Shown one piece after another: positions 3,391 through 64,000 of a stretch of DNA of 64,000 nucleotides (positions are counted from its first letter, which is position 1; each line of letters opens with the position of its first letter). The position numbers were made by a program, and so were the translations under genes. This stretch comes from Dipteris shenzhenensis (Eukaryota): assembly GCA_047967505.1 (NCBI GenBank), contig CM106538.1; one strand, written 5' to 3'. The notes beneath the pieces were generated by a model. The model had not been told where the DNA came from. It saw only the letters and a program-made list of their open reading frames with translations, and ran no database searches.

Positions 3391-6300
3391 TCATGGTAAA
3401 TTTTGAAAATACTGCTGTAAAATGTCAAGGTACTGCTGTAAGTCTTCATCAGATTGCCAAGTAGCGTCGGAGTCGTCCAGATCTCGCCAAAGAACAAGGA
3501 ATTCTGTGATAAGTCGATGTCAAGTCTCTCGCTGTCGATGGTCCAGAATACGTTCAGGAATAAGGAGAACATAATCGTCTTCGATTTCTGGGACATAATC
3601 ACCTGTAGGAGGAACTGCTTCATCACCTAGAATGTACGTCTTTAGCCAAGAAATATGAAATGTCAAGTGGATTTTACCCCATGATGGTGGTAATTCCAAT
3701 TTGTAACTTAAAGGTGAATTTTTCTTGACGATCCAGAAAGGTCGCAACTTAGGAAACACAGACTTAACCGTCTTATAGCGATGTGGGGCTACAAATAATA
3801 GCACCATGTCACCCGTGTCAAATTCCAAGTGACGCCTATGTTTGTTGGCAGACCGTTGATACGGCTCTTGCGCTTTTCGCATATGATCCCTGACTTGGAG
3901 TAGAATGTCTTGCATTTCTTGAACCAGTTGATCAGCTAGGGCCACTCGATGTTGAAGTACAAAATTCATTGGTACAATCGGAGTGTGTCCATAAGCTGCT
4001 TGGAATGGAGTCATGCTGATTTCACTATGGAAAGAGTTGTTACAAGCAAACTCAAGGAGTGGTAGATACTCTTCCCAAGCTGCTAGGCGTGACTGAATAT
4101 AATGTCGAAGCATTTCTTCCAGAACTTGGTTGACTCTTTTAGTTTGGCCATCTGATTTGGGGTGGTAGGCTGAACTGAACAGTAGAGTTGTTCCCAAAGA
4201 TTCAAACAGTGAAATCCAAAAGTGACTGGTAAACTTAGGATCTCTATCGGATATGATGTTCTTGGGCAATCCATGGTGTCAGAAGATGTGTTGTATGAAG
4301 AGTTTGGCGATGTCCGGAGCCTGTGCACTGCTTTTGCAAGCAACAAAGTGTGCCATTTTGGACAATCGATCAACAATTACCATAATCTGAGTGTTACCTC
4401 GGGAGGATCGTGGTAGTGTTGTAATGAAATCCATGGAAATACTTTCCCACTTTTCAGTTGGAACTGGAAGAGGCTGAAGAAGTCCTGCTGGGAGTCGTCG
4501 GCTTGCTTTCATTTGTTGACAAGATAAGCAAGATGTAACCATTTTGATGACGTCGCTTTTCATCTGAGGCCAGTAGTATGTTGCATTGAGTAACCTATAA
4601 GTCTTGTTGATGCCTGGATGGGCAGCGTAAGGAACTACATGATGCTCTTTTAACAAAAGACGTCGAACATCCTTGTCATGTGGTACACAGACGCGATCTT
4701 GATAATACATAAGGTCGTCCGTATAAGAATAGGATGAGAAAATCTTCTATTCGGAAGTCGAAGGTTGATCTTTTGAAAGAACTTGTATTGTTGTGCCGAA
4801 GTCTTTATCATTGAAATACTTTCCTTTGAATGAATTCGGAACATTTACAGATAATGTAGAGATTACCATAGCTGATGCTAGAGTTAACCTGCTGAGAGCA
4901 TCTGCAACTACATTGCGTAGTCCTGGAATGTACTCAATCGTCATGTGAAAGTTGGCCAGAAACTCAATCCAGCGTGCTTGTCGAGCGTTCATGACTGGCT
5001 GAGTAAAGATATACTTTAGAGAGTGATGGTCTGTCTTGACTACAGAGTCGGCTCCCATGAGATAATGTTTCCAAGAGCGATAAGCATGTACAACGGCAAG
5101 AAACTTCTTATCATAAACCGGGTATCGGGTTTGGATATTAGAATATTTATGGCTGTCAAAAGTAATAACTCTGCCTTCTTGCATCAAGACTACTCCTGTA
5201 GCGATGTCGGAAGCGTCGATCATGACCTCAAATGGAAGGTTTGGGTCAGCAATAGCCATAACTAGTGTGGTAGTGAGTGCTTGCTTGAGTTGTTGGAAAC
5301 TATACTCGGTTTCGGGAAGCCACTGAAAAACTGTTGTGCTTTTTAATAATTCGGACATAGGAGCTGCGATTTCGGAAAATTGATAGACCTTTGTATGGTA
5401 GAAGTTTGCCAATCCGAGAAAAGAGCGGACATCATGAACAGTCTTATGAGTAGGCCAGTTTCGGATTACCTCGACCTTCTTGGGATCCACAGAGATGCCT
5501 TGAGCTGAAATAACATGTTCCAAATATTCGAGTTGGGTCTTGAAGAACTCACTCTTCTGAATGTTGATGTAGAGAGAATTTGCGCGGAGAACTTCAAAAA
5601 CTTGGTGAAGATGTTGTTTGTGCTCATGTAGGGATCTGCTGAAAACAAGGATGTCATCGAGGTAAACGATGACGAACTTATCAAGGAAAGGCCTGAAGAT
5701 GTCGTTCATGAGTGTCATGAATGTGGCCGGGGCATTGTTTAACCCAAAAGGCATGACCAAACATTCATAGTGTCCATACTTTGTTCGAAAAGCTGTCTTG
5801 TACTCATCGCCTTCTCGTATGCGAATTTGATGATAACCTGAACGAAGATCAATCTTTGAGAATTGTGTTGCGTGTAGAAGTTGATCGAAGAGGTCATCGA
5901 TGCGAGGCAATGGATACTTGTTTTTGATAGTGAGCTTGTTGAGGGCTCGGTAGTCGATGTAGAGGCGCATTGACTTATTCTTTTTTTCCACAAGTAGTAC
6001 AGGAGATCCGAAAGGGCTGCGACTGGGTTGAATGTGACCTTTGTCGAGTAGTTCGGTCACCTATCTTTGGATTTCTTCATTTTGAGTGTAAGAAACCCGA
6101 TACGGAGGTTTCGACGATGGATTACTGCGGGGAATAAGTTCGATTGGGTGATCCATTGGTCGTCGAGGTGGTAACTGCTTTGGCAATTCATGTGGAAAAA
6201 TATCTAGGTAGGGCTGGAAAAAAGGTTGGTTGAGGTATTCAGGAGGATCCTTTGTTGGTGTCTCCTCTACTGCCGTAACCAACAGAAGTGAAGTCTTTAC

Positions 6301-7988
6301 TTGACGTTTACGAACCCACTTCTTTACTTGTAGGGCAGAGGCAACTGGGGTTGAAGGACAGTCCCTTAAATCGGTGGACAAACTGGATAGTATGGCTGCG
6401 AAAACTGATTGATGGATCATAGTCGTAGAGCCACTGTTGTCCAAGCATGACATCGTACCGAGAAAGGGGCATGATGTCGAAGTTCAACTTGTCCATATAA
6501 TGTTGGATGCGAAAAGCAAGTTTTTGATCCTGGTGTTGCACAAGAAGGTAGTTCCATTTGCGAGTTCAATCTGATAGTCCATGAGACTAGGACTGGTGGT
6601 CAACCGAAGTTTGTCGACCATAGAACTAGCTAGGAAGTTATGAGAGCAGCCACTGTCGATGAGGATAGTGACCGTTGTTCCACGAATCGATCCTTGAACA
6701 CAAAGTACTTGAGTGGCCAGGGAAGGTTTGGGGTTGCTGGCAAGGCTCCGGTGGATGGTATTCGCCATTCGAACAGCTTTGCCTTCCTTGTCTTGTGCTG
6801 GGGTAGCATCTTCTGTATGGGAAGTGCTAGGTTCCATATTGGAATTTTTCTTTGGTCGCTTGGGACAATCGAACCATCTATGGTCGCCTGTGCAGATGGT
6901 ACAAAGTCCTTTTGTGCTGGAGTTGTTCTTCTTGTTAGTGGCCGCACCTTTATGTTGGGGATGTCGGTAATGACTTTGTGTAGAAGAAGAGGCGCGATCC
7001 TTGGAGGAGTGCTTCTGTTGGAATCCAGCATACGATTTTTGAGACTTCGGGGGCTCTTGAGACTGTCGCTGACCTTGATTACTCGAGTTTTTTCTAAACC
7101 TGGGGTTATCTTAAGGACGAGTACCTTTGGCCATAGTAGAGTTCTGTGTGCAATTAGCACTCTGCTTCCCTGTGTTTTGGAAATCTGTAATGCGCTCTGC
7201 ATAAGCAATAGCGCCAGCCGTGATGGTGATGTTAGCTTTAAGGACATCAATGCGTAACGAGGGATTTAGGCCTGAGATGAAAGCATGAAGGCGATCATCC
7301 TCAGTTAAACCATCAATCTCCAGCACCAATGTGGTGAACTGAGGGAGCCTGTTTGCTCCAACTGTCGGAGTTTTGATCGTGCTTGGAAGTCCGCATTGGC
7401 AGGTATGAACTGCTTACGGAGCACGTGTTCAAAAAGTTCCCATGTTAACACACTTTTGCTGTCCTTTAAGCGTCTTTGCCACCATAGGAAAGCTGTATCC
7501 TTAAGGAGGGAGGCTGCCAAGGCGATCTTTTTGCCTTCAGTGAGGTCAACAATATCAAAGTACATGCGCAATTTTGCGAGCCATTGGCCAACTGTTTGGC
7601 GATTTCGTTGACCAGTGTAGGCTTTCGGAAGTTTAATGTCAAGTCTTTTAGTTTTGGAAGCTTGGAGTAAACAGTAGAGAGCACGGAGTTCAGTATTTTC
7701 TACCTCAGGTGGGAATGAATCCGGATAGTCGTCTGGTGATGTCACGTCATCCTCTGTATGTGTGGTACTGCGAGAATCTTGGAGGAGTTGGACTTTTTGG
7801 ACCAAGTCGGAGATGCTGTTCTCAAGCTGGGAAATTTGAAGTTGCAGTAGTGTTTCGCCTTGTATGTTGACTTCAGGGGTCTTTTTTGGACTTGAGTCTT
7901 TGATCTCTGAAGAGGTTGCACGCGAGCATTGCGACATATCTGACGTCCCTGTGAGAAAAGCACAAACCTGCGCTCTAGTTTGTACCAT
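3391..7988 (-). pseudogene. Chromoviral gag-pol pseudogene (Gag, protease, RT, RNase H, integrase, chromodomain)
   Basis: Gag (7305-7988, AFLWWQ...FIPANADFQARSKLRQLEQTG); PR LIDSGCSHNF (6484-6837); RT YLDD and RH DAS (4747-6060); INT HHCC and ISMDF/SDRD/DGQTKRVN (3520-4710). Chromodomain PERILDHR..*HRLITEFLVLWRDLDDSDATWQS ends at 3391. Several in-frame stops and frameshifts. Confidence 0.92.
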
Positions 7989-8226
7989 TCCTGGAAGAAG
8001 ATTCGGGCTGCTCCCTGAGGTTGCTCATGTTGGAGGGGCAGGCGAGGCAGGATGGAACCACCCATGGAAATCTGGTGAAGGAGGTCCTGTCTGAGGTAAC
8101 ACTAGTGATGCCGAAATGGGTGTTACTGCTCGTGAGAGTATAGGAGTAGGTTGCAGAGTCCATGGATCTGAGAAGGGATAAGGAGTTGCTGTCGGGAGTG
8201 GAGGATATTCAGGAGAAGGAGTGCCT

Positions 8227-8751
8227 TCAGAGTGTAAAACTGTCTTGGGGAAGGTACAACCTGTATGGGAGGATATCTGGGAGCTGAAGGAGGTGGAGAG
8301 TACCCTGGAGATGCCGAAGGTGAGGGGTAAAATTCTCTTCAAAGATGGACAGCGAACTCGTGAGGAATATCGGGTTCTGGGTACCTTCGTGTCTCGTGGA
8401 ACACAACCTGGAGGGTGCTGAGGAAGTAATGTAATTGAGGTGCCTCACACAGAAGGTATAGGATGTGGTCCAAATCACTAGGAGGGCACGTGACACAGAA
8501 GACCCACGATGCCAAAGCTCCGAAATGGGCTGGTTGTGCAATTTGAACACGATATTGTGTGGTAGATGATGCCTGAGGTGTCCTTGAAATGCCGGGTGAA
8601 TTACCTGCTTTAAGGGAGCGTCTTTCATTTGCTGTAATTTGATAATGACAAGAGAATCCTTAGAAGTAGAATGGAAAGAATCCACCTGGCAATGATTTAA
8701 TCTGCCAATTTGTTGCGTAGAAGGCTTGCAGATTTCTGTCCGGAGGTCCAT
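8227..8751 (-). CDS. Putative extra ORF in the chromovirus 5' internal region, function unknown
   Basis: ATG-initiated 174-aa ORF between PBS and gag. The same frame continues past two TGA codons to a stop overlapping the gag start. No recognisable domain. Confidence 0.3.
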   Translation of the reverse strand: MDLRTEICKPSTQQIGRLNHCQVDSFHSTSKDSLVIIKLQQMKDAPLKQVIHPAFQGHLRHHLPHNIVFKLHNQPISELWHRGSSVSRALLVIWTTSYTFCVRHLNYITSSAPSRLCSTRHEGTQNPIFLTSSLSIFEENFTPHLRHLQGTLHLLQLPDILPYRLYLPQDSFTL

Positions 8752-12809: not shown

Positions 12810-13512
12810 AAGTTTAAGCTTGGGAGTAAAGTGTACCTGTTCATTAGTACACATCTTTGCATCGTTAGCAGTCTTTTGGGAAGAGGTTAATGTACTAGTA
12901 CTCCAAGGATGAGAGGCTAAGGGGATGTGGGAATTTTTTGTGTAAGTCATTTGAAAGGGGTTCATTGCAGCTTGCGAAATATAAGTTTACAGAAAAATAT
13001 AATGGAAAGCAGGTCCTTATTATTGTAGTCGATAATACTGGATGTTTGAGCATTCGTTCTCTGTGGAATACCTTTGATTTGTTTGAAGCCTCTGTGTAAT
13101 ACCAATTATGTGTATGCCAACTCTTTTTCGACTGCTGCTACTTCATTGCCTGTTCGAGCTGTTGGTGCCCTCCCTTGCCTGCCTTGTGCTAGCCCTTTGG
13201 AACGGTATATTTTTTTGCAGCCCTCCAGACTCATGCTTGAGCCCTTTGGAAGCTCTACTCCCCCCAATTGATTTTTTCAAGTTATAGTCTGTTCCCAGGC
13301 CTCCAAACTTGAATGCCTACTGTTCTTTTTTATTTCTTGTTGGAAAATTTGTACACGTGTCCCCCCGCCAAATTTTCTGGTTGAAATGGAGAGAACATAA
13401 CTATTGGGAAAAATAAAATAGAATGGCTTTTATTGGAATACCTCTGACAACCTTGGTTAATATGTTGAACTTCTACTGCAGTTTTCTCATATGTGTGTAC
13501 CTTACTGCGCAG

Positions 13513-14316
13513 ATAGCTCAAAGAAATGGGATCGAAGTGGATGTAGATTTGGCATTGGGATTTGCATCTCATTACTGCAAGATTGGTACAATGGAATGCC
13601 TGGTGAATGATGGGAACGCAGTTGCCTTTTTGGGTCCTCTAATGCGGGCTGCAGATCGAGGCTGTATGCAGGTGGTTAAATGGTTTGTCGAGAGAGGCTG
13701 CAGGGATATGGAGCTGTGTCTTGCTCTGACAGCGGCCGCTTCAAGCAGCAGGATTGAAGTGGCTGACTACCTTTTGAAGCATATACCACTCCATGTTCTC
13801 CGTGCCCTAAGCTTGGATATTTTGAAGGCTGCTGGTGAGAGAAGTGCTGGCTCTTTAAATGGAATAGCTTTTCTCCTGCAGTCCGATTTCCTCGGCAGTC
13901 CAGAGGCAACCTATGCAGTTGCTGACAGCATTTCAAGATTGGAGGATGAGACTATCTCTGCAGAGTTGAAATCATTCTTCAAAGAAAAGTGGTCAGATGA
14001 AGCGTTTGTACGGGGGAGAATGGTTGGTGAAGCTCACCACTTAAATATAATGAGAGCTATTAAGAGGGGCTCATCACCTCTTCACCTTCAAGAACTTCCT
14101 CTACAGCTGCAGGTTACCATAGCCTATCTTCCTTTGTATAAAGAATGTGCTGCTCCTTGTGGCCTCTTACTTTCTCAGTGGCTCAGGGGCCAGCTTGTGG
14201 AGGCTGCCTTGAGGCTTGATGGAGGTAAGGATTACTCAGCAAAAGAGATCACAGAACTGGACAAAGGTAAGCTCCTTGCAATATTGGAATCAAGGTTACC
14301 ATCCTTCGTTGTATGA
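13513..14316 (+). CDS. SKIP35: Terminal coding exon of an ankyrin-repeat SKIP35-like host gene (upstream exons outside the window)
   Basis: After acceptor CAG (13510-13512): IAQRNGIEVDVDLALGFASHYCKIGTMECLV..GNAVAFLGPLMRAADRGCMQVVKWFVERGCRDMELCLALTAA...AGERSAGSL...IAYLPLYKEC...LRGQLVEAA...LPSFVV*. This matches the conserved C-terminal half of plant SKIP35. The ORF-track N-terminus (13423-13512) is intronic. Confidence 0.88.
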   Translation: MAQRNGIEVDVDLALGFASHYCKIGTMECLVNDGNAVAFLGPLMRAADRGCMQVVKWFVERGCRDMELCLALTAAASSSRIEVADYLLKHIPLHVLRALSLDILKAAGERSAGSLNGIAFLLQSDFLGSPEATYAVADSISRLEDETISAELKSFFKEKWSDEAFVRGRMVGEAHHLNIMRAIKRGSSPLHLQELPLQLQVTIAYLPLYKECAAPCGLLLSQWLRGQLVEAALRLDGGKDYSAKEITELDKGKLLAILESRLPSFVV

Positions 14317-54100: not shown

Positions 54101-54349
54101 TGGGAAATGTTTTCCACCATGCGTGCTAAACTGGGACACTCAGGGTAATCAACTATATTATGTCATCAACCTTTGGGGTAGATATTTGTATTCTTTTGTT
54201 GGCATTTGATGTTACATTGGATTGGATTCCAACATCAATTGTGATTATGGAGGAATCCATTCCTACTAAAGTTGCTCTTGCTTATGCTAAGCTTGATGTC
54301 ACTACAATAGGAGCCAAACTTTACCTATCATATTCAAGCCCATGGATAC
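51200..54349 (-). mobile_element. Old, fragmented non-chromoviral Ty3/gypsy pol that hosts the young element; probably continues after 63280
   Basis: PR: ALLDG..GINILPRSLYEWLG, MVDQGRV*PLGIM (~52800-53040). RT: DKFFKVAFIYP, HSFLDRFTWYNQIQMAEEDKDK (~51764-52085, interrupted by a TA microsatellite). RH: PNWMFDFHVFVDASDIAIGALLMQ (~51255-51330). Confidence 0.7.
51856..51964. repeat. (TA)n/(TATG)n/(CATG)n compound microsatellite
   Basis: Read directly from the sequence. Confidence 0.9.
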
Positions 54350-55339
54350 TGTTATGGATAAAATTGTCTAAGGAAAAAGGCATTAATGTGTATGTGTGTT
54401 TGTATATGTGGCAATAGTATAATCAAATATGGTGTGCATAGGGCCCAAGGTTGAGGTGGCAAGGCATGACCATGTGCCACCCTTCCATGTAAGAGGACCC
54501 ATAAGGTGTGTTGTACATAATCCATAATAGTAATATTATAAAATGCAAGGTGGCATGGCTCCTCCATGTGCCACCCCTCCACCTAGGATGCAATAATTGA
54601 GATAAGGCTCAAAGTCCAAGGGAGAAGCAATATAAAATGAGTGGAGATGGCTATTATATTGAGTTATTCCCTCCATATGGGATAGGCCCATGTGGGGGAG
54701 GTATAGAAGGACAAAGAGAGCTAGTTAAATAATAGGGAAAGTAGGACGAGGTGGCAAGATTCCTTGTGCCAACCCTCCACTTGTCCTCCTAGAGGTTTGA
54801 ACCTATTATAAAATTGGAAGAGACCTAGGAAGTATCATAGACTTGAGATAAGGGGCTTGATTTATGCGGAAAATTGAGGCAAAGGGTTGTCGCACACAAT
54901 TGAGAGTGCGTACCCACCTAGCCCACATGGGAGACTTTTCCACACACACCATGCATGTGGGAGGATACATTAATGTGGAGAGACCCCCTCTTTTGGCTAT
55001 AAAAGGAAGGGGCAATTCCTTGATGGGACACGCTCATTCTTGTAAAGCCACCTAGCTAGTATTTTGATATTTCCCTCTCATCCCTCCTTTCCAATAAAGT
55101 ATGGTTCACTTCCCTTGATGTCTACATCTCAACATTCCTCTTCCTATCATGTACTTGCTTCTCTTCCCACACTCCCTTTCCCCTTGTGTCATAGTCTCCC
55201 TTTTCCTTCCCTCCATTTCTAATTCCTTATTCACCCCTATGACATCCCTTCGCCCTCGTGATCTCCTTTTCTCTATGGCCTTTGAGCGTCGCCATACTTA
55301 GTCTCTAGCTTTTGGTCTCGGTTTCTTTTCCGGCTAAAA
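54350..55339 (+). repeat. 5' LTR
   Basis: TGTTATGG...CGGCTAAAA; TATA-like CTATAAAAG at ~54997; AATAAA at ~55093; direct repeat at offset 7940. Confidence 0.95.
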
Positions 55340-55343
55340 GTTT

Positions 55344-55376
55344 TGGTGTGGCTGCTGGGATACGAATCTCCACGGC
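55344..55376 (+). promoter_or_regulatory. Primer-binding site complementary to cytosolic tRNA-His, with a second complementary box
   Basis: TGGTGTGGCTGCTGGGAT is the reverse complement of ...AUCCCAGCAGCCACACCA, the plant tRNA-His 3' end as I recall it. TCTCCACGGC (55367-55376) matches GCCGTGGAGA of the same tRNA. Confidence 0.8.
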
Positions 55377-55486
55377 TGTTGGCGAATCTTCTATTCGTAT
55401 GGGTTACATCAACAAAACTATACCATCTGTGCTCTTTCTAAGCTACTGCGCGTGCATTCGCTTCGTGCGTCTCCTGCGCTTCAGTG

Positions 55487-55642
55487 CTCTGGACTGCTGC
55501 GATTTCTAGTTGCGGACAGTTTTCTGCGCGACAGTTCTCTAGACTGCCGCGACTTCTGGTTGCGGACAGTTTTCCGCGCGACAGTTCTCTGGACTGCTCT
55601 GGTCGCGGACTGGTTTCCTGAGGTCGCGGACTGTTTCCTGAG
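55487..55642 (+). repeat. GC-rich tandem repeats in the 5' leader (~50 bp x2, then ~20 bp x2)
   Basis: CTCT.GACTGC.GCGA.TTCT.GTTGCGGACAGTTTTC.GCGCGACAGTT x2; GGTCGCGGACTG.TTTCCTGAG x2. Confidence 0.8.
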
Positions 55643-56020
55643 CCCCTGCAAAAGAGTAACAGCAGATCCCGCGCCCCCCCTATCTCTTCTCTTGTTCTCC
55701 TTCTCTTTCTCTTCTCCTTCTCCTCTCCTCTCCTCTCTTTTTATTAAAGAGTAGGATTGGAACCCAAGACCTCCCCCTTCACAAAAGAAAGTCTTATCAT
55801 TGGGCCAACAAGTTGGAAGTGGTAAAAATGTAATGATTTTTGTTCATATATTGAAATTGCGGGAGCTGTAACTCTCTAACCATAAGGAGTTTGCTCTTGT
55901 TGTAAAAAGCAAAAATATTTCATTTTATGTTCTCTATCCACTTCTCTAGCTAGATCGCCAATTCAAAACTTCTCCAAGCCCACTTCATGGACGCACGCCT
56001 CACGAGAAGGGTGGACATTT

Positions 56021-56431
56021 ATGTCACTTCTCGACGCGTTTAAGGAATTGGTGCCTGTTCCTCCGCACCTTACGGCTACCAATGCACGAGATGTATTCCT
56101 TGATCTTCATGTTGACCTTCAACGGCTGATTGTCCAGTGCATTATTGATGGTGATGACGGGTGGAATGACACACCGTGGATGATTCAGGGTGACGAACTA
56201 CTGATACGCTGGGAGAATTTTGACTTTACTTCTACTCATTGTGCGGTGATCGAACTACTTGCTGCTTCAGAGGTAATCAAAACAGTTTCCTTCTTCGAAG
56301 GGTGGGATGTTCCCCAAGCTTGGGGGGAGATTTGGCACATCTGCTTGTTGATTCCTGTGGAAAAGCTCGTCCTGAATGGTCATTTCACAATCTCATTACA
56401 AAGGTTTCTAGGCCTTGGCTATGGTTGGTAA
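56021..56431 (+). CDS. Accessory ORF-A, 136 aa, with an F-box-like N-terminal motif
   Basis: Open ATG-initiated ORF. VFLDLHVDLQRLIVQCI resembles the F-box pattern LxxLPxxlxxxIlxxL. Its TAA stop overlaps the next ATG. Confidence 0.6.
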   Translation: MSLLDAFKELVPVPPHLTATNARDVFLDLHVDLQRLIVQCIIDGDDGWNDTPWMIQGDELLIRWENFDFTSTHCAVIELLAASEVIKTVSFFEGWDVPQAWGEIWHICLLIPVEKLVLNGHFTISLQRFLGLGYGW

Positions 56432-56655
56432 TGTTTCGACCAAGGAATCCATTTGTACCTAATCAGCCTTTTGTGCCTCATTTTGAGCTTCAAATTGTAA
56501 TTCTTTTTGGGCTTAAGATAAACTATCAACAAAGAATTGCAAGTTTATTTGGTGCTGAACGTTTGGCTCAAGTGTTGAATTCTCCCCACCCTCTCCTCCT
56601 ACCTATCTTGGACTACCGAGAAACTTGGGATGTCCGAATTCTCGTCTTGGTGTGA
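56431..56655 (+). CDS. Accessory ORF-B, 74 aa, function unknown
   Basis: MFRPRNPFVPNQPF...WDVRILVLV*. Starts in TAATG and ends in TGATG. Confidence 0.55.
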   Translation: MFRPRNPFVPNQPFVPHFELQIVILFGLKINYQQRIASLFGAERLAQVLNSPHPLLLPILDYRETWDVRILVLV

Positions 56656-57119
56656 TGACATCTTGGATTCTTCAATTTGATGGAGCTTACAAACCTTCGA
56701 CCAAGGCGGCTGGCGTGGGTGTGAAGCTCACTTCACCGAGTGGTGAGGAGTTTTGTTACAGCAAGTCTTCGCCCGCAAGTACTTGCAATCAAGCTGAGTA
56801 CTCGGCGCTCATTTTTGGGCTACAAAAGGCACAAGAACATCATGCCAAGCAATTGGAGGTGCAAGGAGATTCTCAACTAGTGTGTGAACAAGTTAGTGGA
56901 AGGTGGAAGGTGCGGAGCAAAGGCTTGGTTCCACGACATCAACAAGCCTTGGAACTTTGCAACCAATTTGAAGAGGTAAAAATTCAGCATATCCCTCGAG
57001 CTCGAAATCTTGTTGCTGATTTCTTGGCACGTGAAGCTTGTGTTTCAATCACGCATGACGCGAGTGGATGCGCCACCCCAATCAAGCCGCAAGCCACGAA
57101 GGAGGGTGATCGTTTGTAA
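56655..57119 (+). CDS. Stand-alone archaeal-type RNase H (aRH, RNase HI-like), 154 aa
   Basis: WILQFDGA...AGVG...TCNQAEYSALIFGL...LEVQGDSQLVCEQVSGRWKV...HIPRARNLVADFLAREA. The D-E-D-D catalytic set is complete and the HIPR..N motif is aRH-like. The likely start is the ATG at 56655. Confidence 0.9.
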   Translation: MTSWILQFDGAYKPSTKAAGVGVKLTSPSGEEFCYSKSSPASTCNQAEYSALIFGLQKAQEHHAKQLEVQGDSQLVCEQVSGRWKVRSKGLVPRHQQALELCNQFEEVKIQHIPRARNLVADFLAREACVSITHDASGCATPIKPQATKEGDRL

Positions 57120-57255
57120 GGAATGCAAAGGTTGTGGTCATCATGAAACTAAGTGTTGGGCCTACTTGATACGAGTTCACCGACTTTGGCAGACCATCAG
57201 GAGGGTTCTCAAGGACATTGCTCAAAAGAAGGATGCCAGACCGCACACCCCTTGA
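57055..57255 (+). CDS. Accessory ORF-D, 66 aa, basic, with a CCHC zinc knuckle
   Basis: MTRVDAPPQSSRKPRRRVIV-CKECKGCGHHETKC-WAYL... matches C-x2-C-x4-H-x4-C. It overlaps the end of aRH. Confidence 0.6.
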   Translation: MTRVDAPPQSSRKPRRRVIVCKECKGCGHHETKCWAYLIRVHRLWQTIRRVLKDIAQKKDARPHTP

Positions 57256-57397
57256 AGAAATAGAATGGCGACTACAAGAACTGGAAGAAGCTGAAGGTGA
57301 TGTGCAAGCTCTCCAACTGTTGACATTTGTCATGGCATTCTTGTTTGCCTTGATGAACAACCTCATGCGACGCCGCACCTCTAACACTCGCGTGTAA
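57233..57397 (+). CDS. Accessory ORF-E, 54 aa: acidic coiled coil, hydrophobic helix, basic tail
   Basis: Translated by hand (below the ORF-track cutoff): MPDRTPLEEIEWRLQELEEAEGDVQALQLLTFVMAFLFALMNNLMRRRTSNTRV*. Ends in TAATG. Confidence 0.5.
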   Translation: MPDRTPLEEIEWRLQELEEAEGDVQALQLLTFVMAFLFALMNNLMRRRTSNTRV

Positions 57398-57413
57398 TGA
57401 TCAGAGTGATATC

Positions 57414-57584
57414 ATGAGGATTGGTCCTTTTAAGATAGTCTATGTGCTATTCTATGCTGAAGATTCTTCTCGTATAATATTTCACACTACACCAGTGACA
57501 CCCTACCCTGCCTATGTGTGCTTTTTGGATGTATCTTCACCCGATTTTCAGTTCAAGCTTCCTCTTACTATTGTTCGTCCATAG
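57414..57584 (+). CDS. Accessory ORF-F, 56 aa, function unknown
   Basis: MRIGPFKIVYVLFYAEDSSRIIFHTTPVTPYPAYVCFLDVSSPDFQFKLPLTIVRP*. Linked by the 6-codon mini-ORF MIRVIS (57397-57417) through an ATGA overlap. Ends 28 nt before the gag ATG. Confidence 0.4.
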   Translation: MRIGPFKIVYVLFYAEDSSRIIFHTTPVTPYPAYVCFLDVSSPDFQFKLPLTIVRP

Positions 57585-57612
57585 ATAAGCCACTCTTTTC
57601 CATCTTCCAAGC

Positions 57613-60600
57613 ATGGCTGACATTCCCGTGTTTTGTGGACGGGTAGAAGAAAATCCAAATGAGTATCTTGTGGCTTTCAAACGCCATTGTGTCTCTCTCA
57701 ACTTTCTTACTGAAGACAGATGGCTATTGGTTCTCCCCACATTTCTAGAAGGTTTGGCTCAAGTGTGGTATGAGAAGCAAACCGAAGATGTTCGCCAAAG
57801 CTGGCCAAGGTTGACAGCAGCAATGATTGAGTATTTCGGCAAAGAAGAGGAGCCGGAGAATGTGTACCTGCAGGTGGCAAATTTGAAGCAGTCAGAAGGT
57901 GAGACGGCGCGTCGATATGTGGATCGAGCGGCCGTGCTCCTGGACCGTTTGATTGCCACACAGGAGGACAATGCCGGATTTCGAGCTGGAATGACTCAGC
58001 ATGTGCTGGGCTACCTTGTAGCAGGAGCGAGTGATGAATTCCGCCTCAAGCTTAAATGGGAGAATCCAGAAACTATGGTGCTAGCACATGAAATTTCTCA
58101 AAAGTTTGACAAAGTTCAGTCTGACCCCGCTTCAAAGAAGACGATTGTCCCTCCGCATCCCCCTCCATTCCTGCAACAACAACCTGGGGGGTCTAACTCA
58201 GGGGCATACCCCCACCCCTCAGGGATGTATCCACCGCCTCCACCTCAGATGTATGGTCCTCCCTTAGCTGCTTACCCTCAACAAGGTGGATATCCTCATC
58301 CTCCGCCTCGAAGATTTCCCCAGCCTCGCCCACGAGCCCCCCTCCTCTCTACTCCCGTGGCCCCTCCAACTAAAGAGGCCCCCCCTGCAACAGAACCTGG
58401 AGTCAATGACCTAGCCAAGGCCCTGAATGATCTTCGGCTTGAGATGGTGGGCATCAGAAATCAAGCCAACCGCCCTCCAAGAGATCGTGCTAATGTTGTA
58501 TGCTACGAATGCCACCAGAAGGGTCATTATCGCACAGAATGCCCCAATATTCCAAGGGTGAATCTTCTAAGTGAGTCGGGCACTGAGGATTCTGATGTGG
58601 AGATCCTTGATCTCAGGAAAAGAACTCGTGCTACCTCGGACCCCTCTCTAAACCGTGGACTGGGCCGCCCCAGGAAGAAGGTGTCCTTCTCAGAGCCCTC
58701 AGACGCTGAGATGGCAGACCCACCAACAGAGAAGACTAAAAGATCTCGCAGGAGTAAGTGGTCACCCTCGGATTTTCCCATCGGCTCAGGGCAAGAGGAC
58801 TATTCGGTCGTTCAAGACCTTGCTCATCGTTCTTTGAGCATCACACTCCCTCAACTAATAGCATTAAGTCCTAAGGTGAGACGTGAGCTGCAGCAAGGTC
58901 TCTCAACAAGGAAGAGTAAGAAAAAGGGAAAGGTACGAGAGGTATCTTCTATCTCTGAAGAAATTGATCGGCACCCACACACAGTAGATGTCATCATAGA
59001 TAATTGCCGTGTCAAAAATGTGTGTGTTGATGGGGGAGCTGCATGTAATATCATGGTGCCCCGCATCATGAAGAAATTGAATTTGAAATGTACAAGGCGT
59101 TCCTCCACTCGAATCAAGGTAGCAGATGGTCGACGACTCGCCACCATGGGAGTCATTGAGGATTTGCCCATCACTGTCAATGGGCTGACCACCACTGTCA
59201 ATTTCTATGTAGTGGACATTGAAGATACAGGCAGAAGTTACCCTGCCATACTCGGGAGACCATGGTTGAGAAAAAGTGATGCAGTCAGCTATTGGAAGAC
59301 AGGACACATGTCTTTTGGTGCTTCCAAGGAGAAAATCCCTGTGCAACCTGGTGCTATGGAACCGGAAGAAGAAGAGGAACATGATAGTGATACTCTCTCA
59401 TCTTCAGTGTCTGAGTCCATGGAAGAATCAGACGGGGGGGAGGAATTCACAGAGGAGGAAGTTTACATGATGGGGGTGTCTCCGACCCTGCCACCTGTAG
59501 AAAAGATAACAGCTAGTCCTCAACAGCTCGAATCAATGCTTTCTCCAGACCTCACTCCAGGTGAGAAAGATGAGTTTCTTGAAATGTTCAAAGATTTCCC
59601 TGACCTCTTTGCAACTAGCTACCACCACCTTCGCCATGTGACTGCCATAGAGCACAAGATAGAGCTAAAGCCTGATGCAAAGCCTGTGGCTCAGAAGTAT
59701 CGGAGATTAGGGCCCCTACAGACCGACGCCTTGCGATCAGAGTTGCAGAAGCTTGTAGAGGCTGGGTTTATTGTTCCGGTTCACAATACTGAATGGGTTT
59801 CACCAGTGGTAGTCATCCCAAAGAAAAACAACAAGTGGCAGGTCTGCATCGACTATAAGAAGCTCAATGCTGCCACCAAGAGGGATCATCATCCTTTACC
59901 CTTTCAAGACCTCATTCTTGAGAAGGTAAGTGGACATGAGATGTATACTTTCTGTGGTGGTTACTCTGGGTTTTATCAAATCAGAATTGCCGAGGAAGAT
60001 GTGCTTAAAACCACATTTGCCACACCCTGGGGGACATTTGCATTCAAAGTAATGCCATTTGGCCTCACCAATGCTCCTGCCACCTTTCAAAGATTCATGC
60101 AGATGGTGTTTGCTCCTTATTTGGGGGATTTCTTGGAGGTGTTTTTAGATGATTTCTGTATATTCTCATCACGTAAGGAGCACATCATGAAGGTTAGATT
60201 GGCATTCCAAAGGGTTAATGATGCAAACGGTAGTCTCAACCCTGAGAAATGCACCATTGGAGCCACTCAAGGGAGGTTATTGGGACATGTTGTCTCATCT
60301 GAGGGCATCAAGCCTGACCCCGAGAAGGTAGAAGCCATCCTCAAGCTCTCCCCACCTACAACCAAACGTCAGGTACGCTCATTTGTCAATCTAGCAGGAT
60401 ACTATCGCCGCTTCATTGATCAGTATGCTGCTTTGACACGGCCCATGACTATGCTATTAAAAGATGGGGTTGATTTCTCTTGGAATGAGGATTGTGATCA
60501 TGGGTTTGCACAAATCAAGAATGCTCTGGCTTCAGAACCCATTCTACGCAATCCAGACTGGTCAAAGACCTTCTATATCAATCCTGGGTTTGGAGAACAC

Positions 60601-62301
60601 ACTCTGGCAGGTATTCTTCTCCAGCAAGGGGAGGATCGGTTCATGTATCCCGTTCGATTTGCTTCTCGACAATTGCTCGACACCGAGCGATGCTATTCAG
60701 AGGCCGACAAGCATGCCTTGTCTTTGGTGTTTTGCATTGAGAAATTTAAGCATTATGTGGCTGGAAGGTCCTTCTTTATACTCACTGACACTGGTCTTGC
60801 AAAGCAGGTTCTTCAATCACCAAATCCCATGGGCCGGTTGGCCAAATGGTTGGCGGTTCTACAAGAATATGATTTTTCTTTCAAAATTGTAAAAGGGGGT
60901 TGTTCCAACTTGAAGAATGCTTTGATTGATTTAGAGGAGTGCCTTGATGTAACCCTGGTAGCAGCCATAGAAGTTGGGGATCCTTGGTATGGTGGTATAT
61001 ATAAGTTTTTGACCGCTTTCTCCTTTCCTTCAGAAAGTACAAGCTATGAGAGAAAGAAGATCCGCAGAGATAGTAGGCGCTACACCCTCCTTGATGGGGT
61101 GTTGTACCGTCAAGGCATGGATGGGGTACTCAGACGGGCCATTGATGCAGATGAAGTGCCTAAGGTATTGAAGCATTATCATGATGGGTTTTGTGGAGGC
61201 CACTATGCCAGTGACTATACAGCTAAGAAGATTTTACATGCTGGATACTATTGGCCGACATTGTTCAAGGATGTCACTTTGTATTGCAAAACCTGTGAAC
61301 CATGTCAATTCTTTGGTAGGAAGGATTTGCGTCCCGGGCAACATCACCCAGTGATGTCCATCCATCCGTTTCAGAAGTGGGGAATAGATTTTGTCGGGCC
61401 CTTGCCCATGACTGCCCGCAAAAAGAAGTATCTTTTGGTAGCCACTCAGTATGTCACTAAGTGGGCTGAAGCTATCGCTCTCTCTGCTGCAAATGGCAAG
61501 GCAGTTTCAAGTTTCATATTCGAACGTATCTGCACAAGGTTTGGGACACCCATGGAGATAGTCTCTGACCATGGGAGTCCATTCTTAAATGAAGCAGTGG
61601 AGTTACTCATGGATCGCATGGGCATTGATCATCACACTTCTAGCATCTATTATCCAGCATCCATGGGTCAAACAGAGTGGACCAATGGCCTCCTCTGTAA
61701 AACCATAGGAAAAATGGCCGCAGGAAATAGGAGCCAATGGGATCAGAAGGTCACTGAAGCAGTGTGGGCTTACAACATCACTCATAAAACATCTACAGGT
61801 CACACCCCTTTTGAGTTGGTGTATGGTACTGAGGCAGTTTTACCACTTGAGATAGAGATTCCAGCCTTGAGATTGGCGCAAGAACAGAGGATGACAGAAG
61901 ATGAACATGTAGAGGCCAGATTGGTACAACTTGAGAAGTTAGATGAGACCCGACGCCTTGCACTACATCAAACAGAGATCCAAAAGAATCGACAAAAGGC
62001 CCGATTGGATGCTAAGATTCGCAAGGGATGGGTAAGACACTTTGCTGAGGGGGATGTTGTGCTATGCTTTGATAACAGATTGGACCACCAAATGGATAAG
62101 AAGTTTCTGCCACTGTGGGCTGGTCCATACAAAGTCATCAAAGAACGTAGCAATGGTTCTGTACAAGTTCAGGAGCTGCATGAACCATATGGCAAGAAGG
62201 TGATCAACAAGCGCTACCTCAAGCCTTTCTTTGTGCGTGATGGTCCCAGGCATGGAAATGCGGTGCATTCCCTGCCTGGGGGGGGGAACTGTTATGGATA
62301 A
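57613..62301 (+). CDS. Gag-Pol polyprotein, 1562 aa (Gag, CCHC, PR, RT, degenerate RH, INT)
   Basis: Gag (FCGRVEENPNEYL...LEGLAQVWYE), Pro-rich linker, CYECHQKGHYRTEC. PR: VDGGAACN. RT: MPFGLTNAPATFQR, FLDDF. INT: H..H..CxxC, GIDF, SDHG, GQTE; C-terminal WAGPY. Single uninterrupted frame. Confidence 0.95.
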   Translation: MADIPVFCGRVEENPNEYLVAFKRHCVSLNFLTEDRWLLVLPTFLEGLAQVWYEKQTEDVRQSWPRLTAAMIEYFGKEEEPENVYLQVANLKQSEGETARRYVDRAAVLLDRLIATQEDNAGFRAGMTQHVLGYLVAGASDEFRLKLKWENPETMVLAHEISQKFDKVQSDPASKKTIVPPHPPPFLQQQPGGSNSGAYPHPSGMYPPPPPQMYGPPLAAYPQQGGYPHPPPRRFPQPRPRAPLLSTPVAPPTKEAPPATEPGVNDLAKALNDLRLEMVGIRNQANRPPRDRANVVCYECHQKGHYRTECPNIPRVNLLSESGTEDSDVEILDLRKRTRATSDPSLNRGLGRPRKKVSFSEPSDAEMADPPTEKTKRSRRSKWSPSDFPIGSGQEDYSVVQDLAHRSLSITLPQLIALSPKVRRELQQGLSTRKSKKKGKVREVSSISEEIDRHPHTVDVIIDNCRVKNVCVDGGAACNIMVPRIMKKLNLKCTRRSSTRIKVADGRRLATMGVIEDLPITVNGLTTTVNFYVVDIEDTGRSYPAILGRPWLRKSDAVSYWKTGHMSFGASKEKIPVQPGAMEPEEEEEHDSDTLSSSVSESMEESDGGEEFTEEEVYMMGVSPTLPPVEKITASPQQLESMLSPDLTPGEKDEFLEMFKDFPDLFATSYHHLRHVTAIEHKIELKPDAKPVAQKYRRLGPLQTDALRSELQKLVEAGFIVPVHNTEWVSPVVVIPKKNNKWQVCIDYKKLNAATKRDHHPLPFQDLILEKVSGHEMYTFCGGYSGFYQIRIAEEDVLKTTFATPWGTFAFKVMPFGLTNAPATFQRFMQMVFAPYLGDFLEVFLDDFCIFSSRKEHIMKVRLAFQRVNDANGSLNPEKCTIGATQGRLLGHVVSSEGIKPDPEKVEAILKLSPPTTKRQVRSFVNLAGYYRRFIDQYAALTRPMTMLLKDGVDFSWNEDCDHGFAQIKNALASEPILRNPDWSKTFYINPGFGEHTLAGILLQQGEDRFMYPVRFASRQLLDTERCYSEADKHALSLVFCIEKFKHYVAGRSFFILTDTGLAKQVLQSPNPMGRLAKWLAVLQEYDFSFKIVKGGCSNLKNALIDLEECLDVTLVAAIEVGDPWYGGIYKFLTAFSFPSESTSYERKKIRRDSRRYTLLDGVLYRQGMDGVLRRAIDADEVPKVLKHYHDGFCGGHYASDYTAKKILHAGYYWPTLFKDVTLYCKTCEPCQFFGRKDLRPGQHHPVMSIHPFQKWGIDFVGPLPMTARKKKYLLVATQYVTKWAEAIALSAANGKAVSSFIFERICTRFGTPMEIVSDHGSPFLNEAVELLMDRMGIDHHTSSIYYPASMGQTEWTNGLLCKTIGKMAAGNRSQWDQKVTEAVWAYNITHKTSTGHTPFELVYGTEAVLPLEIEIPALRLAQEQRMTEDEHVEARLVQLEKLDETRRLALHQTEIQKNRQKARLDAKIRKGWVRHFAEGDVVLCFDNRLDHQMDKKFLPLWAGPYKVIKERSNGSVQVQELHEPYGKKVINKRYLKPFFVRDGPRHGNAVHSLPGGGNCYG

Positions 62302-63279
62302 AATTGTCTAAGGAAAAAGGCATTAATGTGTATGTGTGTTTGTATATGTGGCAATAGTATAATCAAATATGGTGTGCATAGGGCCCAAGGTTGAGGTGGC
62401 AAGGCATGACCATGTGCCACCCTTCCATGTAAGAGGACCCATAAGGTGTGTTGTACATAATCCATAATAGTAATATTATAAAATGCAAGGTGGCATGGCT
62501 CCTCCATGTGCCACCCCTCCACCTAGGATGCAATAATTGAGATAAGGCTCAAAGTCCAAGGGAGAAGCAATATAAAATGGGTGGAGATGGCTATTATATT
62601 GAGTTATTCCCTCCATATGGGATAGGCCCATGTGGGGGAGGTATAGAAGGACAAAGAGAGCTAGTTAAATAATAGGGAAAGTAGGACGAGGTGGCAAGAT
62701 TCCTTGTGCCAACCCTCCACTTGTCCTCCTAGAGGTTTGGACCTATTATAAAATTGGAAGAGACCTAGGAAGTATCATAGACTTGAGATAAGGGGCTTGA
62801 TTTATGCGGAAAATTGAGGCAAAGGGTTGTCGCATACAATTGAGAGTGCGTACCCACCTAGCCCACATGGGAGACTTTTCCACACACACCATGCATGTGG
62901 GAGGATACATTAATGTGGAGAGACCCCCTCTTTTGGCTATAAAAGGAAGGGGCAATTCCTTGATGGGACACGCTCATTCTTGTAAAGCCACCTAGCTAGT
63001 ATTTTGATATTTCCCTCTCATCCCTCCTTTCCAATAAAGTATGGTTCACTTCCCTTGATGTCTACATCTCAACATTCCTCTTCCTATCATGTACTTGCTT
63101 CTCTTCCCACACTCCCTTTCCCCTTGTGTCATAGTCTCCCTTTTCCTTCCCTCCATTTCTAATTCCTTATTCACCCCTATGACATCCCTTCGCCCTCGTG
63201 ATCTCCTTTTCTCTATGGCCTTTGAGCGTCGCCATACTTAGTCTCTAGCTTTTGGTCTCGGTTTCTTTTCCGGCTAAAA
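62290..63279 (+). repeat. 3' LTR
   Basis: Direct repeat of 54350-55339, preceded by a G-run PPT. Confidence 0.95.
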
Positions 63280-64000
63280 ATACACATTCCTATGTGTTGA
63301 AGTTTTCTTCCATGCCGTGGAAAGGGTTATCCTTTATAATAATCTCAAAATCCATCTGGCAGGCTTGGGCAATCATTGCCAGTGTATAATCCTCCCTCAA
63401 GTCAAATATTTCTTGAATGTCATGAAGAAGAATATACTCCATACCTCCAATTTGGAAAGAGGAAATCAATAGCACATCATGGGCTACACCTTTCAATGTC
63501 AGGGCTTCAATACTTACTAGTCGGTCAAGTGTGTTTGACGTTAGTGCCACAAGGTCCAATGCAGCAGCTTCATCTCTCTCCTTGACTACATTTCTCACCT
63601 CCTCTTCATCCTTCTTCTCTGCTACTTTCCCCTCCTCTTGGAGTTTCTCTTTATTTTATTGTTTTGGCGATCCCAAGGCCTCTCTTCCACTTCCTCCTCC
63701 TCTTTCATCTCCAAGTATTGTTCAATGTCAATGTGGTGATAGTTTAGGTACAGTAAAAATAACAAACATTCCTCCATAATTTTACACTTTCTAGTGTGCA
63801 TGTTCCACTTTGCCTTAACATTCTCTGCTAAGAGGTCATATCTTTTGTGAATGAAAGACCTCAACTTGTTATCCATCACACCAAATCCTTAATGTGGATA
63901 TAATACTTATCTACAGTACAAACCCTACCCTCCCCTATGAGCTTTTGAAACACATTGCACTATTCAGTCAGAATTTCAATGTCTTGATCAATGAAATCTG

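Follow-up and report, generated by a model that had tools for sequence, protein, structure and literature searches.

A Ty3/Gypsy retrotransposon with a decayed RNase H in pol and a complete archaeal-type RNase H gene ahead of gag

How does a long terminal repeat (LTR) retrotransposon remove the RNA strand during reverse transcription when the RNase H (RH) domain in its pol has lost most of its catalytic acids and a complete RNase H is encoded by an open reading frame (ORF) of its own ahead of gag? This question is posed by an element of 8.9 kb, measured from LTR to LTR, on the plus strand of the 64-kb stretch of DNA analysed here (hereafter the window, with positions counted from its first letter). 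The separate gene, at 56655-57119, encodes an additional, archaeal-type RNase H (aRH) of 154 aa, which is quite likely the working RNase H of the element; most of the alternatives concern the route by which its product reaches reverse transcription.

The assignment of the aRH draws on Pfam, on alignments to solved structures in the PDB and on an AlphaFold2 model. The ORF matches RVT_3 (PF13456, E 9.9e-27) over residues 8-128 and also RNase_H (PF00075, E 4e-8), and it aligns to the solved archaeal-type RNase HI structures 3hst (E 6.7e-18), 4e19 (E 1.8e-16) and 3aly/2ehg (E about 1e-10). A preliminary description of the locus, made from its sequence, had credited this ORF with a full RNase HI active site, and we confirm that the five motifs concerned (FDGA, NQAEY, GDSQL, HIPRARN and VADFLA) are all present and that the catalytic acids D9, E48, D72 and D122 are all in place. 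In the AlphaFold2 model, residues 1-131 have a predicted local distance difference test (pLDDT) score above 90 and the tail, residues 132-154, one below 50. The PDB folds closest to the model are 3hst, which is the N-domain of Rv2228c, and the Halobacterium RNase H1 4e19 (template modelling (TM) scores 0.78/0.90), and further matches include LC11-RNase H1 and Sulfolobus RNase HI. Judging from these alignments and the predicted model, the protein is an archaeal-type RNase HI fold with a complete DEDD site. The location given in the preliminary description, a free-standing ORF between the primer-binding site (PBS) and gag, was likewise borne out: the gene is enclosed by the two LTRs, with 1.3 kb separating it from the end of the 5' LTR, and is located 494 nt 5' of the gag ATG at 57613, with which it does not share a reading frame.

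The native RH domain was recognised by Pfam within pol at 60481-60870. The Ty3 reverse transcriptase (RT)/RH structure 4ol8 matches this pol with an E-value of 3.1e-58, and alignments to 4ol8 and to 26 relatives place the degenerate catalytic positions at 60571-60918. The first Asp is replaced by G992 (60586-60588) within the motif FYINPG, which begins at 60571, the Glu of the second position by H1034 (SEADKHAL) and the Asp of the fourth by N1102 (NLKNAL), whereas the third Asp is retained as D1059 (LTDTG). Three of the four acids are gone, just as had been described before, with the first loss at the coordinate given then. Loss of the first Asp in an 'NPxxG' context and loss of the Glu are common to the element and to the fern-type clade of its relatives introduced below, while the third Asp, kept here, is lost in those relatives; decay of the native RH therefore began before the layouts with the aRH inside pol and ahead of gag separated. 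The role left to the native RH is probably just that of a structural 'tether', and the aRH with its full DEDD site would supply the RNA-degrading activity needed in reverse transcription.

Both genes sit in an element whose ends can be defined precisely. A search for direct repeats followed by blastn of the two ends identified a 5' LTR of 990 bp that starts with TG (54350-55339) and a 3' LTR at 62290-63279. The two LTRs are 99.6-99.7% identical over 990-996 bp, their initial 300 nt being identical, and they are flanked by an identical 4-bp target-site duplication, ATAC (left copy 54346-54349, right copy 63280-63283). Read from the sequence, a PBS-like site initiated by TGG lies 4 nt past the 5' LTR (55344-55368), and a polypurine tract, composed of nine G followed by AAC, adjoins the 3' LTR (62278-62289). 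In the 5' to 3' direction the layout is thus LTR, PBS-like site, a leader of 1.3 kb, the aRH ORF, a spacer of 493 nt, gag-pol, polypurine tract and LTR. The leader holds three tandem 50-nt repeats at 55469-55618 (100, 82 and 60% identical to the first, which served as reference copy). It also includes an ORF at 56021-56428 that we treated as non-coding; the parent ORF has no Pfam match and has weak look-alikes in the Atlas (0.91, with 122 of 256 features in common). According to the ORF list and Pfam, gag and pol occupy a single ORF of 1562 aa (57613-62301), the last 12 nt of which fall within the 3' LTR (62290-62301). Its domains are gag (57736-57957, with a CCHC motif at 58501), protease (58984-59271, DGG motif), RT (59815-60291, FLDDF motif), RH and integrase (61144-61656); this is the Ty3/Gypsy order, and the protease DGG, RT FLDDF and integrase motifs agree with those of relatives. 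With its LTRs, target-site duplication, PBS-like site and polypurine tract, the element is a Ty3/Gypsy LTR retrotransposon.

To place it among other Ty3/Gypsy elements, we searched with pol residues 700-1150, which gave 4442 matches among 8000 scored candidates, and examined the best 120 of these 4442. The most similar of these 120 proteins (45-50% identity) are from Adiantum nelumboides and others that carry PF13456 inside pol, together with Marchantia proteins that have no PF13456 in pol. A quick maximum-likelihood tree of RT and RH was built from 76 rows, each required to cover at least 140 aa of RT and then at least 90 aa of RH, with multi-RT proteins lacking an organism name dropped. In this tree the element is sister to 22 rows, including Adiantum, in which the aRH lies in pol or the sequence is truncated near it (Shimodaira-Hasegawa-like approximate likelihood ratio test (SH-aLRT) 93), and together with the aRH-bearing fern-type rows it forms a clade of 24 rows with an SH-aLRT of 99 in a sample that holds no curated Tat or Athila references.

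Three features link the element to a particular layout of the Tat clade. The extra archaeal-type RNase H typical of Tat elements is present, with archaeal-type RNase HI proteins as its best structural matches, and so is the degraded native RH core, which here reads G, H, D, N. The third feature, an aRH ORF before gag, is also found, and the same context recurs in sister contigs and in the family member P0009. Biryukov & Ustyantsev 2023 described this arrangement as 'structure #4' in mosses (Tat B) and in Selaginella tamariscina (Tat C), and reported that the native RH has decayed in all Tat structures with an aRH; how an aRH located outside pol could function was to them unclear, and they regarded the aRH phylogeny as unresolved. 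In the available part of Prokopeva et al. 2026 (PMC13468544) the same layout is named 'pre-capsid', mosses, lycophytes and ferns follow one another in this order on one Tat branch, and Wang et al. are cited as co-discoverers. The preliminary description had not recognised the architecture from described lineages, a claim of novelty that these two publications contradict; the oversight may stem from REXdb, since the accessible portion of Neumann et al. 2019 gives only three aRH positions. The position of the element as sister to fern-type elements is compatible with the order Tat B - C - D as far as it can be taken from the published text, and the copy itself appears to be a new member of a known architecture, its RT-RH being at most about 49% identical to the proteins retrieved. 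As the best explanation of the whole, we consider it likely that the element is an intact, young and apparently autonomous copy, with LTRs about 0.3% apart, of a Tat-clade Ty3/Gypsy retrotransposon in the structure #4 or pre-capsid layout.

Sister copies speak to whether the gene ahead of gag is a peculiarity of one insertion. A word-index protein search with the aRH yielded 53 candidates, of which 45 had E <= 0.001; nine of these 45 (P0001-P0009), which come from short contigs, are family members with 69-83% identity. P0001 and P0002, both of 154 aa and the only full-length sisters (81% identity), retain D9, E48, D72 and D122 as well as the same stop. P0003, P0004, P0005, P0007 and P0008 are fragments limited by their contigs, and they retain the catalytic residues wherever these are covered; P0009 reads from the leader into the aRH and shares the upstream context of the element. 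We also collected contigs with at least 88% likeness to the element from four sequencing runs, all of them assembled contigs and none on record as RNA. The runs gave 464, 95, 15 and 41 matching records, which indicates that the family is multi-copy. One family-bearing run is labelled as an algae metagenome, a label that we did not take as evidence of habitat or host. The flanks of the aRH are bridged by record 9 of run X2 (56515-57541), by record 19 of run X3 (56356-56744) and by records 1 and 2 of run X1 (56485-56707 and 57098-57385). The aRH ORF and its position are conserved in sister copies. Beyond these proteins and runs, a search with the aRH gave 70 pattern matches and no relatives among metagenome contigs, and an alignment of pol against viral contigs yielded only three loci at 25-30% identity, which were not useful.

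Several observations weigh against the picture drawn so far. Two family fragments are broken, P0006 having lost the D72 motif and P0009 diverging past about residue 57. In two X3 contigs, from another organism, a segment (56349-57851 in one, 56745-57814 in the other) is replaced by 22-24 letters of unrelated sequence, so that some copies lack the aRH, in whole or in part; the gag start is missing from them as well, and for this reason we read them as deletion derivatives, that is, as defective copies. The RT-RH tree is a quick version, and its rows include no curated Tat references, either from REXdb or from the authors' sets. In a quick tree of the aRH itself, with 58 rows, the protein and P0001/P0002 group (support 95) with free-standing RNase H proteins of unstated origin, apart from the aRH domains in the pol of the element's RT relatives; a single clade is not rejected (approximately unbiased (AU) test, p 0.257), the aRH identities to the two groups are similar (35-39% versus 38-41%) and the branches are long. 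Relocation and independent capture, the two origins that the preliminary description put forward for the aRH, would both be compatible with this result. Finally, the stretch from the 5' LTR to gag (55340-57612) is rich in ATGs, with 18 before the aRH ATG and 18 more up to the gag ATG, and simple scanning from a capped full-length RNA consequently explains neither the aRH nor the gag ORF.

If the aRH is the working RNase H, its product has to reach the site of reverse transcription, and the route that we rate highest, at somewhat less than an even chance, is synthesis of the aRH as a protein of its own that is then recruited in trans. A complex prediction for pol residues 690-1115 with aRH residues 1-136 gave no verdict (score 0.00, the alignments not being used). 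The preliminary description went further and held that the aRH has to work in trans and to be packaged on its own. That necessity is not shown; a candidate in-frame GT-AG intron of 496 nt (57116-57611), proposed from the sequence, could join the aRH to Gag-Pol.

We came upon this candidate when each GT in the tail of the aRH was paired with AG sites near the start of gag. The donor, GTAAGG, shares bases with the stop codon of the aRH. In the acceptor, pyrimidines occupy 14 of the 15 positions ahead of the AG, and a single nucleotide separates its end from the gag ATG; once 57116-57611 is removed, the aRH and gag, the latter starting at its first Met, form one reading frame. It is possible, if doubtful, that the aRH is for this reason not free-standing: the interval would be spliced from part of the transcripts, making the aRH the N-terminal domain of an aRH-Gag-Pol protein that is packaged in cis, whereas the unspliced RNA would serve as genome and might also yield the aRH alone. 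The position of the donor is a point in favour of this proposal, as splicing would remove the stop and create a junction in frame with gag. The element (8930 nt) holds eight GTAAG sites, with 9.2 expected, and 33 acceptor-like sites, and by a rough post-hoc estimate such a pairing would arise by chance a few times in a thousand. T is more frequent in the interval, GC content is lower (0.442, compared with 0.486 in the aRH and 0.520 in gag), and the Leu and stop at the end of the aRH are kept in P0001, P0002 and P0008. In addition, the predicted disorder of the aRH tail (residues 132-154) would suit a linker, and there is a precedent within the Tat clade in the inter-ORF intron of Ogre, which according to the portions of PMC6317226 and PMC3735527 at hand is spliced in a subset of transcripts.

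These points have to be set against several others. No 57115/57612 joint was seen in the assembled contigs, and no GT-AG joint is among the three joints that they contain: one is the skip of a 50-nt leader repeat in an X2 contig (55527-55578) and the other two are the replaced-segment deletions in X3. The exon side of the donor reads TT instead of AG and the acceptor AAG, both weaker than the consensus. Moreover, 30 of the 70 scanned GT/AG pairs also keep the frame open, and the pair was chosen after looking. As far as the main texts of the two layout papers were available, and with no search of them aimed at splicing or introns, splicing is not described for structure #4, and neither frameshifting, nor a donor over the stop with an acceptor at gag, nor a nucleocapsid (NC)-like knuckle of the kind discussed below is mentioned there. 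On balance, we judge it rather unlikely that the aRH is joined to Gag-Pol by partial splicing and is thereby carried into the particle at the N-terminus of Gag. If it were true, a spliced fusion would answer the published question of how an aRH outside pol serves reverse transcription, and 'structure #4' would be a spliced polyprotein and not a trans-acting cistron.

What probability remains is shared between an aRH that has no role and an aRH linked to a zinc knuckle by +1 frameshifting. In the first case the aRH would be a passenger or relic, and the removal of RNA would fall to the RNase H of the host or to what activity the native domain has left. The aRH-less X3 contigs and the broken fragments P0006 and P0009 fit such a reading, and the literature itself asks how a separate aRH ORF could function. 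Nevertheless, the ORF and its four acids are intact in the window and in both full-length sisters, at 81% identity, in the native RH only one catalytic acid of four is left, and the contigs that lack the aRH are also defective at the gag start; we therefore regard a relic as improbable.

The second possibility concerns an open +1 frame of 91 codons that overlaps the aRH tail. Within it, a 66-codon ORF runs from an ATG at 57055 to a stop at 57255, overlapping the 3' end of the aRH gene; its predicted product contains an intact CCHC knuckle as well as a basic stretch. There is no Pfam match to it, but in a single BLASTP comparison 16 of 40 positions (40%) are identical to gag residues 284-322 (E 6e-6), and when a capsid-like remnant was looked for in the leader by tblastn with gag, only this NC-like segment was found (E 6.7e-4). 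Among 1.84 billion representative sequences the knuckle ORF has two weak matches, of which only P0286 extends over the knuckle, with its second Cys replaced by Tyr; a CCHC motif is present in none of the 45 aRH homologues. That ribosomes shift into this frame and so extend the aRH into a packaged, NC-like protein that binds genomic RNA is very improbable, for all that the frame is open and its basic, knuckle-bearing product resembles the NC segment of gag, given that no slippery site was recognised, that the RNA fold at the overlap is no more stable than shuffled sequence (z 0.95, with 166 of 200 shuffles folding as well), that relatives with the knuckle are so scarce, and that a recombination scar is the simpler reading. 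A recombination scar is indeed what the knuckle ORF probably represents. As such, it could be a trace of the recombination that moved the aRH before gag, and it is relevant to the view, put forward in the literature, that recombination between elements gave rise to the alternative Tat structures.

The surrounding DNA gives some indication of the host. A SKIP35-like ankyrin gene is represented by its C-terminal exon (13417-14313, plus strand, 299 codons open), and its N-terminal half was not detectable anywhere in the window. The exon is 88% identical to one transcript-derived protein and 70-75% identical to proteins of liverworts, mosses and Diphasiastrum, with lower values for seed plants. 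In a quick tree of 26 rows picked from 120 listed, this single gene fragment groups with the transcript-derived protein just mentioned, separately from mosses, liverworts, seed plants and those lycophytes that were sampled. Going by this one fragment, the host would belong to a non-seed streptophyte lineage with few representatives among named proteins, and it is a lesser possibility that the host is neither a moss nor a Selaginella, the groups from which the layout was reported. The window contains one copy of the element. It also carries a second, unrelated Gypsy element (3520-8444, minus strand) with 27% identity to the pol described here, the coding region of which is cut into consecutive ORFs by in-frame stops and the native RH of which still reads DAS at the first motif. 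Between 22787 and 27661, on both strands and in mixed orientation, ORF pieces resembling a Copia-type gag (CCHC) and integrase/RT were noted by eye in the ORF list. Scans of the window with Rfam and for tRNA genes gave no matches and no genes, respectively.

As the arrangement has already been published, our finding adds no new architecture. Its value lies in providing a clean specimen, a young and apparently autonomous copy of the rarest Tat layout, the sequence of which offers a specific splice hypothesis for a question that the literature leaves open, trans-complementation and a spliced aRH-Gag-Pol fusion being the two alternatives that it sets against each other.

Comparison with known systems brings out what the element shares and where it departs. 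The closest counterparts in layout are the structure #4/pre-capsid elements of the non-seed-plant branch of Tat, which likewise have their own archaeal-type aRH ORF between the 5' LTR and gag and a decayed native RH core; their published hosts are mosses and Selaginella, and the element differs in that its RT-RH does not exceed about 49% identity to anything retrieved. The closest counterparts in RT-RH are the fern-type Tat elements of 'structure #1' (retrovirus-like; A. nelumboides P0079 and P0077; 43-49% identity), which form the sister clade and share the NPxxG change and the loss of the Glu, but carry the aRH between native RH and integrase. This difference is reflected in the distance from RH to integrase, which is about 317 aa in the fern-type elements and about 160 aa here, roughly 150 aa less. 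Ogre, an angiosperm member of Tat, offers a parallel to the candidate intron in that two ORFs are joined by partial splicing; in the accessible text of the two Ogre reports, the intron lies between gag-protease and RT-RH-integrase and the aRH inside pol, whereas the candidate here lies between aRH and gag. Retroviruses likewise combine a degenerate native RH, serving as tether or connection, with a newly acquired active RNase H, a convergence described in PMC4408406 and PMC10508981, yet their two RNase H domains are adjacent in one chain, while in this element the gene for the presumably active one stands upstream of gag. Lastly, the cellular archaeal-type RNase HI proteins (4e19, Sulfolobus tokodaii 2ehg/3aly and Rv2228c 3hst) have the DEDD site and the fold in common with the aRH (TM 0.74-0.78 by query and 0.76-0.91 by target) at 30-38% identity, and differ from it in that the aRH is encoded by a retrotransposon and ends in a tail of 23 residues that is predicted to be disordered.

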